A DNA stretch of 64,000 nt from positions 36,394,001 to 36,458,000 of the forward strand of contig OX597839.1 in NCBI GenBank assembly GCA_951406725.2. Direction: 5' to 3'. The translations under genes were made by a program, and so were the position numbers. Under the pieces are notes generated by a model. The model had not been told where the DNA came from. It saw only the letters and a program-made list of their open reading frames with translations, and did not search any database. The first letter of the stretch is position 1; every line of letters begins with the position of its first letter. Of this stretch, positions 4,420 through 54,911 are shown in pieces. This DNA comes from Octopus vulgaris. Taxonomy: Eukaryota.

Positions 4420-4789
4420 TGTGTGGGTGGGTGTGTGTGTATATGCATATGTGTGTGTGTATATTTATATGTATATATGTATACATATGTGTGTGTGTGT
4501 GTGTATATATATATTATGTATGTGTATATGTATGTATATATATATATGTATATATGTGTGTGTATATATATGTATGTATATATGTGTGTGTATATATATG
4601 TATATATGTGTGTGTGTATATATATGTATGTATATATGTGTGTGTATATATATGTATGTATATATGTGTGTGTATATACATGTATGTTATATATGTGTGT
4701 GTATATATGTATATATATATATATGTGTGTGTGTATATATATATGTATATATGTATGTGTGTATATGTATGTGTGTGTATATATACGTA

Positions 4790-4820
<31 letters not shown>

Positions 4821-4961
4821 TTGTATATATATGTGTGTGTGTATATATATATATGTATTTGTGTGTGTGTCTATCATACCCAAGCCTTCTGGTAACATGT
4901 GTACACACACACACACACACACGCATCTCTGTATATGTTTGCGGGTATATAAATATGTATA

Positions 4962-4996
<35 letters not shown>
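4420..4996. repeat. Compound (TA/TG)n microsatellite
   Basis: Directly visible; similar tracts at about 25770-26120, 50505-50665, 51195-51360, 55730-55922 and 61745-61875. Confidence 0.95.
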
Positions 4997-5381
4997 CATG
5001 GTCTGATCAATAAGTATCTGGACTGTTGCCATAGTGACAAAGCTAAAGCACGCAGAGTGAGGCCGCTTGGCACAGACTGGCTTTGAACCCTGCTGCACAT
5101 TCACACAAAGTTTTAACGTTCCAAATCACTTCCGCAGTTTACAGCAATGCTTGGAAGGAACATGTGTATAGTGTGTGTTTGTTGCATTGACCTCGACTGG
5201 GAAAGTTGAGCAGGGAATCTGCATCAAATTTTGCCAAAAGCTTGGTAAATACCTGCTCAGAGGCCTATGCAAAGTTTCAAAAAAGTCTTCATTGTTCTCA
5301 ACACAATCAAGGAGAATTTGTGCAACTGAAACCCGAGTTTCTTTTTTCGTCAGCTGAAAGCAGTTTTGGCGCAACAGACAT
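4997..5381 (+). mobile_element. Mariner-derived non-autonomous element, truncated
   Basis: TA|catggtctgatcaataagtatc end; remnant EQGICIKFCQKLGK of the mariner transposase N-terminus. Confidence 0.75.
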
Positions 5382-5434
5382 TGAATGATGAGGATGATTT
5401 TATATATAAAAATATATATATATATATATATATA

Positions 5435-5980
5435 TACAAAATTTAACCCTTTAGCATTTAAACCGGCCATATCCGGCCAAAAGTATTCTACCTATTCTAT
5501 GTTCAAATTGGCCAGATCTGGTCTCTCACACCAACCCTACAATATCATCTTAAAAATTAACAGCTACCTCATCAAAATCTCATAGCTACAAGATAATGCA
5601 TGATTAGTTCAAGGCAATGTGAATGAAAAAGCATTCATTTTGGCAGAATAATGCGAACACTAAAGGGTTAAAGGACTGGCCACTAAAAGTGGATGGTCAA
5701 CATGCTAGAAATAGACGTCAAAATTGCTATTTTCCACAAAGAAAGTGTTCTTAAATAAAAAAACTCAGCACAAACCAAAGCATTAAAAATAAGCAAGACA
5801 AATGAAAATATACGAAATAAAAGCAATTTTGACGTCTATTTCTAGCATGTTGACCGTCCACTTTTAGTGGTCAGTCCTTTAAATTTTGTATGTAAAAATA
5901 TTTTAATCTTTGGATTTTTTTAATATGCTAAGCCACTGGTTTTAATTGATTAATATCAATTTCTACCCTTATTAAATTTT
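5435..5980. mobile_element. (TA)n-embedded inverted-repeat element, interrupted by a piggyBac-like MITE
   Basis: Arms 5435-5728 (minus the MITE) and 5822-5890; homologous to 36495-36680 (-). Confidence 0.65.
5447..5667. mobile_element. piggyBac-like MITE
   Basis: TTAA|CCCTTTAG...CTAAAGGG|TTAA. Confidence 0.85.
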
Positions 5981-6665
5981 ATATATATATATATATGGAT
6001 ATATATATATATATATATATGGATACCAGGACCTTTGGAGATATGCTGTGATTGAGCAGACTTGGCAACTAAAGTGAGATCGCAGGCATGGCCAATGCCA
6101 GTGTTGCATGTCCAGCCCTTTTAGAAGTACCCTTGGTGTATGTCGGTCGATATGATATGCTTGAGAAGACCTTTTGAGTCAAGTAAAACCAAAATTGTAG
6201 CTATGGTCAGTGCCCCCAGACTAGCTTCCATGCCGGTGGCACGTAAAATGCACCATCTGAACGTGGTCGATGTCAGTGTCCCCTGAATGGCTCCCGTGCT
6301 GGTGGCACGTAAAAAGCACTATCTGAACGTGGTCAATGCCAGGTTTACCTGACTGGGTCCTGTGCTGGTGGCATATAAAAAGCTCCCTGACTAGCTCCCA
6401 TGATGCTGGTGGCACGTAAAAGCACTATCTGAATGTGATCGATCCCAGGGCCGCCTGACTGACTGACTCCTGTGCCAGTGGCACATAATTGCACCCTCTA
6501 CACTCTCTGAGTGGTTGGCGTTAGGAAGGGCATCCAGCTGTAGAAACACTGCCAGATTAGATTGGAGCCTGGGGCAGCCATCTGGTTTGCCAGTCCTCTG
6601 TCAAACCGTCAAACCCATGCCAGCAAGGAAAATGGACGTTAAACAATGATGATATATATATATAC

Positions 6666-6700
<35 letters not shown>

Positions 6701-7307
6701 GTGTTGGTGTGTGGGACATGTATATATATATATATGTATATATATATATCATCATTGTTTAACGTCCATTTTCCTTGGTAAAAGTGGTCGTGTTAAGAAA
6801 AAGACTCTACACACCCGTTCTAATATTTACACAACATATATATATATATATATATATTGTGTTGGTGTGTGGGACATGTATATATATATATATATATATG
6901 TTGTGTAAATATTAGAACGGGTGTGTAGAGTCTTTGGCAAACTGTTTTCTTAACACGACCACTTTTACCATCACATAACATCAGTGTTTGGTGAACACAC
7001 ACACAAGGATGCAATAGTCACTCAATCTGCTGAAAATAGCGACCAAAGCACTCGCAAGTCACATGCTTAAAATGAAAGCTATTGTATCAATCAATACATT
7101 TCCTGATAGGGGAATGACGAAATCATTTGAAATGCAACACCTTTCTATCAGCTTTGATCTGAGATCACATGACAGTGTCACAAGGTGTTTACTTTCGAGA
7201 TATTGAAGGAAATACCTTGCAGGGGCATATTAACTGCTAAAAATAGCAGCTTAATTTTAATTTTACACATATCACACGCTACTGTCTTAAATTAGAAAAT
7301 GTCACCA

Positions 7308-7482: not shown

Positions 7483-7614
7483 TATTATATATATAATTAT
7501 CTTTTTTTAATAATTTTGATATATATTTAAAATAATATAAATTAATTAATCTTATGTATTGGCTTGAGTTTTTCATTGTATGATTTGCCTAATAGTGGTT
7601 TTATCTCTAATTTA

Positions 7615-7622
<8 letters not shown>
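7483..7622 (+). mobile_element. Fragment of the 35.8-36.3 kb element family
   Basis: Near-identical to 36200-36330 and ends at the same point before (TA)n. Confidence 0.75.
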
Positions 7623-7668
<46 letters not shown>

Positions 7669-30811: not shown

Positions 30812-33456
<2,645 letters not shown>

Positions 33457-34231: not shown

Positions 34232-35075
34232 CATGGTCCGATCAATAAATATCCGGACTGTTGCCAAGGTAACAAAGCTAAAGCTTACAGAGTGAAGCCA
34301 CTTGGCACAGATTGACCTCGAGTTCTGCTGTGCATGTGCATTAAGTTTTAACGTTCAACCTCACTTCTGCTGTTTACAGCAGTGCTTGGAAGGAAGGTGT
34401 GTAGTGTGTGATCGTTGCATGGACCATAACGGAGAAAGTTGAGCAGAAAATCTGCATCAAATTTTGCCAAAAGCTTGAGGATACTTGCTCAGAGGCTCAT
34501 GCAAAGTTTTCAACAAGTTTTCATCATTCTCGACACAACCAAGGGGATCTTGTGCAACTGAAACCCGAGTGTCTTTTTGGTCAGCTGAAAGCAGTTTTGG
34601 CACAAACTTGGCAGACATGCATCTCATACCCAAATCTTCAGTGATAATGGACTGAACTGAACCGTAACAAATCTGCACTTCTTCTGATAACTCATGGATG
34701 GGGATTCAGTGATTTTCCCCTCACAGCTGCACATGCATCTGTGATGTTTTTCTTAATTCTGTTGGTTGCTGGTCTCCTAGAACATTCATCAATATCGACA
34801 TTCTTTCATGCGTCTTGGAAACGTCTGAACCACTCGTACACTTGTGTGAGGCTCATACACCTCTCTCCATACACTTTCTGCCACTTTGCATAGGCCTCTG
34901 AGCAGGTATCGCCGTGACATCTTTCTCTGTCATGGTCAATGTGATGATCACATGCTACACACCTTCCTTCCAAGCACTTCTGTAAACAGCGCAAGTTAGC
35001 TAGAATGTTAAAACTTTGTGTGCATACACAGCAAAGCTCAGGGTCAATCTTTGCCAAACGGTTTCACTCTGCATT
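34232..35075. mobile_element. Mariner derivative with two inverted left ends
   Basis: + strand EQKICIKFCQKL; - strand KVYGERCMSLTQVYEWFRRFQD (mariner HTH); left-end sequence repeated in inverted orientation at about 34940-35075. Confidence 0.8.
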
Positions 35076-35526: not shown

Positions 35527-35645
35527 GTATGCTGAAACGAAAGACCTTAGTATTGGATCTTGATGAAACTTTAATCCACTCCCACCATGATGGAGTTTTA
35601 CGTCAAACAGTGAAACCAGGGACTCCACCAGACTTTGTATTAAAG
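35527..35645 (+). CDS. CTDNEP1: CTDNEP1 exon with catalytic DxDxT motif (119 nt)
   Basis: ttgcag/gtaagt boundaries, phase compatible with the previous exon; (S)[39 protein letters not shown]. Confidence 0.97.
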
Positions 35646-36005
35646 GTAAGTGGCATTGAGTAAAGGGAATTGCTTGTCGTTTTTACCTGCACACCACACC
35701 ACACACCCATACACTTTTAATTGGCTCTTGAGTCACGTACTGCTTATTAAAAATTATATATATGAATATATATATATATATATATATATAATAATAAAAT
35801 ATTAGGGAATAAATCCAAACTTACAGGGAAAAAATCAGATTTAGGATTGAATCCAATTTTATAGTAAAATATTATATTATATTAAATTAGAGATAAAACC
35901 ACTATTAGGCAAATCATACAATGAAAAACTTAAGCCTATACATAAGATTAATTAATTTATATTATTTAAATATATATCAAAATTATTAAAAAAGATAATT
36001 AATAT

Positions 36006-36075
36006 AACACTACGATCGTTTCATGGCTGTTCAATTCTTAAAATTTTCGAGTTACAGTCATTCTTCAGGTGGTTT
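36006..36075 (-). ncRNA. Inverted copy of the hammerhead motif
   Basis: Reverse complement of 36128-36197, in the other arm of the palindrome. Confidence 0.78.
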
Positions 36076-36127
36076 ACATATTTAACTTGGCGAGGTCTAA
36101 TCAATGAACTCGCCAAGTTAAATATGT

Positions 36128-36197
36128 AAACCACCTGAAGAATGACTGTAACTCGAAAATTTTAAGAATTGAACAGCCATGAAACGATCGTAGTGTT
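36128..36197 (+). ncRNA. Minimal type I hammerhead ribozyme motif
   Basis: cac-CTGAAGA-atgactgt...acagccat-GAAA-cgatcg-TA-gtg: stem I, core, stem II, palindromic stem III, GUA cleavage triplet at 36190-36192. Confidence 0.8.
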
Positions 36198-36370
36198 ATA
36201 TTAATTATCTTTTTTAATAATTTTGATATATATTTAAATAATATAAATTAATTAGTCTTATGTATTGGCTTAAGTTTTTCATTGTTTGATTTGCCTAATA
36301 GTGGTTTTATCTCTAATTTAATATAATATATATATATATACACTTTATTTAAAGCAGCAGAAAATTCAAC

Positions 36371-36417
36371 AAAACCTGTTACTCTGAGTTTCACGTTCCC
36401 GTTCGTCGGACAGTTTT
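36371..36417 (-). ncRNA. Second, unrelated minimal hammerhead motif (U4C core variant)
   Basis: Reverse complement aaaactgt-CCGACGA-acg ggaa cgt-GAAA-ctcagag-TA-acag g tttt, followed downstream by AATAAA and (TA)n. Confidence 0.7.
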
Positions 36418-36494
36418 TGCTAGTATTTGAGTACTCTTTTTTCCACCTTGTTTCACATTTATGTGTTTACTCTGGTATATATATATATATATAT

Positions 36495-41484: not shown

Positions 41485-41556
41485 GTTATCATAGATCGAC
41501 ATCCTGTTCGTTTCTTTGTGTATAAGCGACCTCATGTTGACTACTTCTTAGAAATA
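41485..41556 (+). CDS. CTDNEP1: CTDNEP1 exon (72 nt)
   Basis: ttccag/gtaagt; [24 protein letters not shown]. Confidence 0.97.
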
Positions 41557-54280: not shown

Positions 54281-54580
54281 AAAATATTAGAAAGAAACCA
54301 CCTTTTATCAATTCAAAATGGATAATTAAATTACACCATCTAGAAAATTACATATAATAGAAAAGTTAAAATTAAAATAACAATTAAAAAGTAAAGGTTA
54401 AGTAAATTACAAAAATAATATAATGTATATAATAGGTAGAAAAACATTTTGAATTGATAAAAGGTGGTTTTTTCCCTAATATTTTATATATATATTATAT
54501 TGTGTGGAATTTGACTTAGTATTTCTAAATTGAATTCTTTTTCCCTGTAAGTTTGGATTTTATTCCCTCAAATAATAATT
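54281..54580. mobile_element. (TA)n-embedded element with 40-bp outer inverted repeats, plus a second end fragment
   Basis: 54281-54320 is inverted at 54445-54485; 54538-54569 (ttttccctgtaagtttggattttattccct) matches the reverse complement of 35804-35832. Confidence 0.6.
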
Positions 54581-54911
54581 TATATATATATATATATAGT
54601 TTTCTACTATAGCCTTGTGAGTAGATTTGGTAGATGGAAACTGAAAGAAGCTTGTCATGTATATATATATATATGTATATGTGTGTCTGTTTGTCTGTCC
54701 CATCCCCACCATTGTTTGACTACCCAGGCTGGTGTGGGTACATCCCGTTAGCTTAGCAGTTCGGCAAAAGAAACCGACAGAACAAGTCCTGGGGTTGATT
54801 TGCTTGGTTAAAGGCGGTGCTCCAGCACTGCCACAGTCAAATGACTGAAACAAATAACAGAATAAAAGAATATATATATGTGTATATATATATATATATG
54901 TATGTATATAT

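Follow-up and report, generated by a model that had tools for sequence, protein, structure and literature searches.

Two spliced pLTRs in head-to-head arrangement, derived from a Hydra-clade Penelope-like element, in an intron of octopus CTDNEP1

A palindromic element with a hammerhead motif on each strand lies in an intron of octopus CTDNEP1, which raises the questions of what it derives from, how its inverted arms were formed, and whether its ribozyme acts on the host pre-mRNA. A sequence-only reading of the window (the whole 64-kb stretch of DNA that was analysed) had described a 540-bp palindrome of two near-perfect inverted arms around a 14-nt spacer, inserted in (TA)n within the CTDNEP1 intron. 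The inverted arms were recovered (Table 1), with four mismatches listed between them, i.e. three substitutions and one base within the spacer region, and with a 14-nt spacer at 36095-36108 under strict pairing. Only about 458 bp is palindromic, however, and the element is asymmetric owing to an extra tail of about 83 nt on the left arm. The intronic position was also borne out, as human CTDNEP1 matched the exon at 35529-35646 (E 9e-18) and further exon-like stretches, located by motif, occur on the plus strand at about 41500, 42500, 44255, and 46340; the palindrome is therefore intronic between that exon and the exon-like stretch near 41500. With regard to target-site duplication, both ends of the element lie in (TA)n, and the four sequencing runs compared with the window yielded neither an empty site nor a usable host transcript. 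No PLE ORF pieces were detected in the window or in the 10 kb to either side.

Table 1. Features of the CTDNEP1 intron insertion and its surroundings (window coordinates; unit positions refer to the repeat unit).
Feature	Position	Strand	Remarks
CTDNEP1 exon with DLDET catalytic motif	35529..35646	+	Intron begins GTAAGT at 35647
(TA)n target, left flank	35755..35790	.	Read from sequence
PLE 'tail', unit ~243-322, left arm only	35789..35872	-	Same tail after both pLTRs of locus L141
Left arm and right arm	35873-36097 / 36106-36330	inverted	225 nt each, 98% complementary
Left arm, pLTR exon 2, unit 30-~238	35873..36081	-	
Type I hammerhead motif, antisense to host gene	36011..36071	-	Motif at 36068-36011; predicted cut after 36011
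Exon 1, 29 nt, from inferred transcription start 36110; spliced junction 36082/36081	36082..36110	-	
Head-to-head junction: 14-nt unpaired spacer and 2-nt microhomology (36109-36110)	36095..36110	.	
Right arm, unit ~17-242, tail-less, ends in (TA)n; spliced junction 36121/36122	36109..36335	+	
Type I hammerhead motif, sense to host gene	36132..36195	+	Core 36135; predicted cut after A36192
Second repeat family remnant, own hammerhead-like motif 36409-36380, core CCGACGA	36340..36475	-	Adjoins palindrome, also inverted

The hammerhead described for each arm was found in both with all of its listed parts, namely stem I (cac/gtg), the core CUGAAGA, a stem II with 7 of 8 pairs, GAAA, the palindromic stem III ACGAUCGU, and GUA, and the sense cut falls where it had been placed. 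Both motifs have the make-up of a minimal type I hammerhead (core CUGANGA, GAAA, UH, stems I and II, palindromic stem III), and their presence on both strands is a consequence of the inverted duplication. When the 64-kb window was scanned with pairing constraints, these two motifs and one neighbouring motif were returned and nothing else; a loose hammerhead pattern was at chance level in the window, with 21 matches vs a shuffle mean of 9.9 and 7 of 100 shuffles as high. The covariance-model search that had been proposed gave no hammerhead in an Rfam scan up to E 10, the output being just hairpin and miRNA-like chance matches. The monomer is predicted to fold only weakly (z about +1; -1.1 kcal/mol), and in the predicted cofold of two copies the palindromic stem III pairs between molecules (-20.4 kcal/mol). 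Excerpts of PMC4209133 describe minimal PLE hammerheads as having no monomer activity and weak activity as dimers. Across 188 distinct copies of the family, the 11 core positions varied less than the remainder (0.007 vs 0.036), i.e. the core is preferentially conserved as the sequence-only reading anticipated. In the stem alignment 98.6% of cells were paired, and covariation among 6 subfamily copies was weak, with one double change (101 of 500 shuffles as high).

Several other repeats were observed around the palindrome. The adjoining remnant is likely another PLE pLTR; the CC of its core was kept in five of six other copies in the fetched loci, CCGANGA also occurs in other families, and CCGACGA may be a natural core variant. 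A solo, tail-less arm of the palindrome's own family at window 7488-7629 is 96% identical, with its start a few nucleotides beyond the hammerhead cut. At window 54464-54585 lies a piece that resembles the tail; it is 73% identical to the unit and comes from a related family. Similar tails recur in other loci, and the PLE tail may be a shared protein-recognition signal. Window 34288-35071 contains MITE-like inverted arms of 154 nt (81% complementary, 476 nt apart), and window 33230-33375 a near-perfect hairpin of about 140 nt with sub-threshold miRNA matches. The flanking DNA of the fetched loci (1.1 Mb) contained about ten unrelated minimal hammerhead-like families with a palindromic stem III.

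The genome comprises 2.8 Gb in 227 contigs. Within it the arm proved to be a young repeat with 1118 candidates, 40 of which were scored, most being 97-99% identical, and a 29-nt family pattern had 2,108 exact matches genome-wide; most samples were the first matches in genome order and exact patterns, and are biased towards young copies. In a position-ordered sample, (TA)3 or more directly followed the 3' end in 74 of 79 copies, in agreement with the (TA)n targeting previously suggested. The parent was found by walking upstream from longer copies, arriving at locus L141, where the order is 5' pLTR, tail, ORF (4428-6860, with breaks), a 3' UTR of ~1.3 kb, AGTT, intron, hammerhead, tail, and (TA)n. 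The pLTRs of L141 are 94-95% identical to the window unit, and the ORF sits between two repeat copies in both L141 and L140. A fully intact ORF was absent among 12 long copies, the longest open frame being 745 aa and 5'-truncated.

The parent ORF itself had no Pfam match, and searching PDB sequences with the ORF profile yielded no significant match. Aligned with 7 of 13 homologs, the ORF gave a profile match to a Pfam-positive RT/GIY-YIG PLE from the same genome (598 columns, prob 96, E 2.6e-9), and its homologs carry PF26215. The parent ORF contains the Hydra-clade motifs DKT (not DKG), YRDD, CxCx5C (CTCRDKTKC), CxxC (CYLC), and CxH (CRH), without CCHH; at the RWK position near the N terminus L141 reads RIKWK, and seven homologs read RWR or KWK/RWK. 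According to excerpts of PMC8557442, the Hydra clade is characterised by such ORF motifs and targets (TA)n. Judged by the ORF motifs of the parent and (TA)n targeting, the window element belongs to the Hydra-clade PLEs. The family also displays PLE (EN+) traits, i.e. linkage to an RT/GIY-YIG ORF, direct or inverted pLTRs with an optional tail, and a pLTR hammerhead. The proposed Penelope-like origin was upheld in this way, with copies tied to an RT/GIY-YIG ORF and not to a DDE transposase. The accompanying proposal of a non-coding element or retrozyme had to be abandoned, as the palindrome is a fragment of a coding PLE and is arranged head-to-head, not as head-to-tail monomers. It can be stated with high confidence that the feature is real and represents a Hydra-clade PLE insertion that consists of two spliced pLTRs set head-to-head and is a dead end.

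A GIY-YIG family search of the genome led to a PLE with a 781-aa ORF that is distinct from the parent; two of its loci carry only inserted pieces of the window family. This PLE (L149-L152, e.g. L149:2245-4587) is apparently active, with many identical-scoring 781-aa RT plus GIY-YIG frames and an upstream ORF. In L145:4593-6830 and its homologs, asparagine-rich stretches occur between the RT and the nuclease, as reported for rotifer PLEs, and in L146 several direct repeats of unit 134-242 lie downstream of a pLTR, forming a satellite-like derivative.

Comparison with the parent revealed a feature of both window arms that the sequence-only reading overlooked, namely their spliced state. The parent intron is 851 nt long (GT..AG), begins 29 nt after AGTT, and ends 10 nt before stem I; both arms lack it, their exons are joined exactly, and the join falls at one nucleotide across the fetched loci. 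The intron coordinates were fixed by an 851-nt GT..AG joint in sequencing run X1; as evidence of RNA splicing this joint was rejected, the RNA nature of the run being a guess and the joined form being present as DNA also. Genome-wide, exact matches numbered 568 for the spliced junction and 229 for the intron-retaining (3') junction, about 2.5 to 1. An extension of at least 100 nt into the 3' UTR, scored from BLAST lengths, was present in 26 of 30 intron-retaining copies (sampled from 36 with an intact donor) vs none of 30 spliced copies (sampled from 33 reaching AGTT; p 8e-13). The spliced copies had a fixed 5' start, with short upstream extensions of at most about 45 nt in 11 of 30. An untemplated G preceded AGTT in 10 of 19, several of them explained by the partner arm; it would fit a cap, which is suggestive only. 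A GTAAGT in the tail is a candidate second donor site.

The excess of spliced short copies, together with a direct tandem of two units (L020), might indicate an independent non-autonomous family, either retrozyme or SINE-like, amplified from its own short masters or from circular RNA. Within single subfamilies, however, spliced and unspliced forms coexist and have their diagnostic bases in common, and the short copies carry no sequence upstream of the start. Furthermore, a test for head-to-tail tandems, the layout of animal retrozymes, showed the window and most multi-arm loci to be head-to-head, with the single two-unit tandem the one case seen, and an independent family is considered very unlikely. 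The preferred reading is that of fragments from the 5' end of a PLE transcript. Transcription would start near AGTT, and the cap-proximal intron would be spliced from the 5' pLTR while the same intron would be retained in the read-through 3' pLTR. Priming in the spliced 5' pLTR would then yield mini-copies of 240-320 nt only, and priming in the unspliced read-through 3' pLTR would yield the long, ORF-bearing copies, so that the known retention of PLE introns would be explained without an antisense template. For rotifer PLEs an antisense template was proposed, and an unspliced sense template was left open (PMC3846280).

The inverted arrangement was examined across the family. The 3' ends of copies cluster around two positions, nt 242 and nt 320, and in a position-ordered sample of 33 head-to-head junctions one tailed arm was paired with one tail-less arm in 31, two junctions had no tails, and none had two (p 4e-7 vs independence). 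An earlier set of 46 junctions, which overlaps the 33 in part and counts two complex loci twice, contained 40 with one tail, none with two, and 6 without a tail. Among the 19 classifiable of 36 pairs, 14 were spliced on both arms, 5 were unspliced on both, and none was mixed. Arm-arm divergence was 1.7% vs 4.4% to other copies, and arms shared nine rare variants. Differences between arms fell at common family alleles in 11 of 104 cases, one of them in the window (36286), so that a second RNA molecule may have served as template in some pairs.

These genomic patterns point to twin priming on sense RNA, and not antisense self-priming, as the origin of the inverted pairs. Following a cut in (TA)n, each DNA end would act as a primer for the copying of sense RNA that had been spliced but not cleaved. 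One end would prime at the end of the tail (~nt 322) and the other at the inner site (~nt 242), in most cases of a single RNA molecule, with microhomology then linking the two cDNAs. Twin priming would fit in vitro work on a PLE protein (excerpts of PMC11167929), in which both strands were nicked and extended, starting from two sites on the RNA that lie on either side of the tail. The window arms span the hammerhead cut, indicating that the window template was uncleaved.

Self-priming on an antisense template, as put forward for rotifer PLEs (PMC3846280), would accommodate the intron kept on both arms in five head-to-head pairs. The 14 pairs precisely spliced on both arms, including the window, argue against it, since the sense GT-AG sites are not available for splicing in an antisense RNA, which would lack the intron only where the copy it was transcribed from had lost it already. 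The 5' ends also follow the start and the ribozyme cut of the sense RNA, and an antisense origin of the head-to-head structure is given very little credence. Another alternative is fold-back of the first cDNA at its 3' end, after which it would serve as its own template and depart at the TA-rich site near nt 242. The window junction, which is nested with a 2-nt stem and a 14-nt loop, is compatible with such a fold-back, as are the nested junctions in 14 of 33 (position-ordered) and 28 of 46 (earlier set) and the splice state and nine rare variants common to paired arms. In 16 of the 33 junctions and 12 of the 46, however, each arm carries sequence absent from its partner, which one cDNA cannot supply, and in L050 the arms are non-overlapping and abut (12-242 and 243-320); the 16 junctions and L050 go beyond a single fold-back cDNA. 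Fold-back also leaves the absence of two-tailed pairs unexplained and is regarded as improbable, twin priming being preferred.

The 5' ends of the copies bear on whether the hammerhead is active. Of the 2,108 matches, the first 100 were classified by start position relative to the scissile bond: 35 arms began at -3..+28, 6 within the 32 nt that follow, and 5 still further down, while 11 began at -20..-4 and 13 at -80 to -21; a further 18 reached spliced exon 1, and 12 retained the intron. For exact starts genome-wide, truncation at the bond was found in 22 of 30 loci examined (31 matches) vs 5 of 10 one base upstream; minus duplicates and one deletion, this became 18 vs 4 (p 2e-6 against equal rates). 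The exact-cut starts span several subfamilies and flanks. Separately, a T stands just upstream in 19 of 22 exact-cut copies (L295-L324) and an A in few, which might be due to non-templated addition of an A when the cDNA was completed.

The accumulation of starts at the cut suggests that the hammerhead likely cuts in living cells; part of the RNA would be cleaved in vivo, and the 3' products would also be copied. The same accumulation could be produced without cleavage, by stalling of the reverse transcriptase at a folded or dimerised motif or by TA microhomology, a somewhat unlikely reading. In its favour, the sequence after the cut is TA-rich, excerpts of PMC11167929 report no RNA-seq reads ending at the cut for an anole PLE, and the 11 arms starting within stems II-III, inside the ribozyme, indicate that stalling at the fold also occurs. 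Against stalling as the general cause are the edge at the scissile bond, sharp to a single base, the G at the scissile-bond start, which offers no TA homology, the six starts only in an equally TA-rich downstream stretch, and the weak monomer fold. Ribozyme mutants of the anole PLE were unaffected in insertion in vitro (excerpts of PMC11167929).

Taken together, the palindrome is probably best explained as spliced 5'-end PLE fragments, twin-primed, inserted in (TA)n, with a partly cleaving ribozyme and a neutral effect on the host. Directly observed parts of this explanation are the assignment to the family, the ORF of the parent, the precise loss of the intron, two preferred 3' ends, the one-tail asymmetry, and three 5'-end classes; its mechanism is read from genomic copies throughout. 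The fuller joint reading is about evenly balanced. In it, both break ends, handled by a dimeric PLE protein, would prime at two fixed sites on one sense RNA, giving the one-sided tail; intron retention would result from 3'-pLTR priming, the spliced 5' pLTR yielding only mini-copies; and the hammerhead would cleave in vivo, with its 3' products integrated to the nucleotide.

For CTDNEP1, the sequence-only reading had allowed either self-cleavage of the pre-mRNA or masking of the ribozyme in a long double-stranded RNA. Self-cleavage is unlikely, as the antisense arm is transcribed first and every one of the 64 ribozyme nucleotides is paired in the predicted pre-mRNA hairpin (-334 kcal/mol), the ribozyme fold being at -1.1 kcal/mol; the masking option stands, and the ribozyme is predicted to be masked by the 225-bp hairpin in the host pre-mRNA. 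The intact sense motif, 546 nt downstream of the exon, could be taken to mean that the hammerhead was co-opted and cuts or regulates the CTDNEP1 pre-mRNA. This is highly improbable given the hairpin, which pairs the whole ribozyme, the youth of the insertion (97-99% identity among copies), and the inactivity of minimal motifs of this kind as monomers (excerpts of PMC4209133). The insertion is likely harmless and without host function, and any host effect would more likely come from long double-stranded RNA.

Inverted pLTRs, tails, and PLE hammerheads are already known. In a literature search mostly outside subscription papers, no report was found of spliced PLE retrocopies, PLE twin priming, or genomic ends at the cut, nor any earlier report of the strict one-tail rule. 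The results bear on three questions that the cited papers leave unsettled, i.e. whether the PLE template is sense or antisense and why introns are kept (PMC3846280; excerpts of PMC8557442), the origin of inverted pLTRs with a one-sided tail, and in vivo cutting by PLE hammerheads (excerpts of PMC8557442 and PMC11167929). More than 2,000 young arms point to the RNA, the pair of priming sites, and the cleavage position involved. Taken alone, the locus is a remnant of a transposon, and its many sister copies matter more.

In L1 twin priming, two target ends prime on RNA, and the inverted junction shows microhomology between non-overlapping arms. The octopus arms, in contrast, usually overlap, which would need strand displacement or a second RNA. 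Hydra-clade PLEs, as presented in excerpts of PMC8557442, share a single ORF with the DKT, CxCx5C, CxxC, and CxH motifs and no CCHH, as well as a canonical hammerhead, (TA)n targets, pLTRs, a tail, and inverted 5' copies. According to the same excerpts, Hydra elements are generally under 3 kb with tails of 30-40 nt, whereas the octopus element is about 5 kb, with a 3' UTR of ~1.3 kb, an 851-nt pLTR intron, a tail of ~80 nt, and KWK at the position of the RWK motif; large numbers of spliced pLTR-only copies are not mentioned in those excerpts. Drosophila virilis Penelope (excerpts of PMC2377424 and PMC4209133) is similar in having a pLTR start site, a 5' UTR intron shortly after it, an intron end beside helix I, a palindromic helix III, and inverted terminal copies. 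Its copies keep the 75-nt intron, whereas the octopus majority is intron-less by exact-pattern count. Animal non-LTR retrozymes (excerpts of bioRxiv 10.64898/2026.07.22.740005) are likewise related to pLTRs, short, and non-coding, and contain a type I hammerhead, but are arranged head-to-tail with one ribozyme per monomer, unlike the head-to-head, spliced octopus copies with their coding parent. The Anolis element PAc Poseidon, in the excerpts of PMC11167929, is likewise reverse-transcribed from two internal start sites on either side of the tail, inserts at AT-rich targets, uses RNA that has not been cleaved as its template, and shows nicking and extension of both strands in vitro; those excerpts report no RNA reads at the cut and do not address inverted junctions, whereas in the octopus genomic 5' ends mark the cut.
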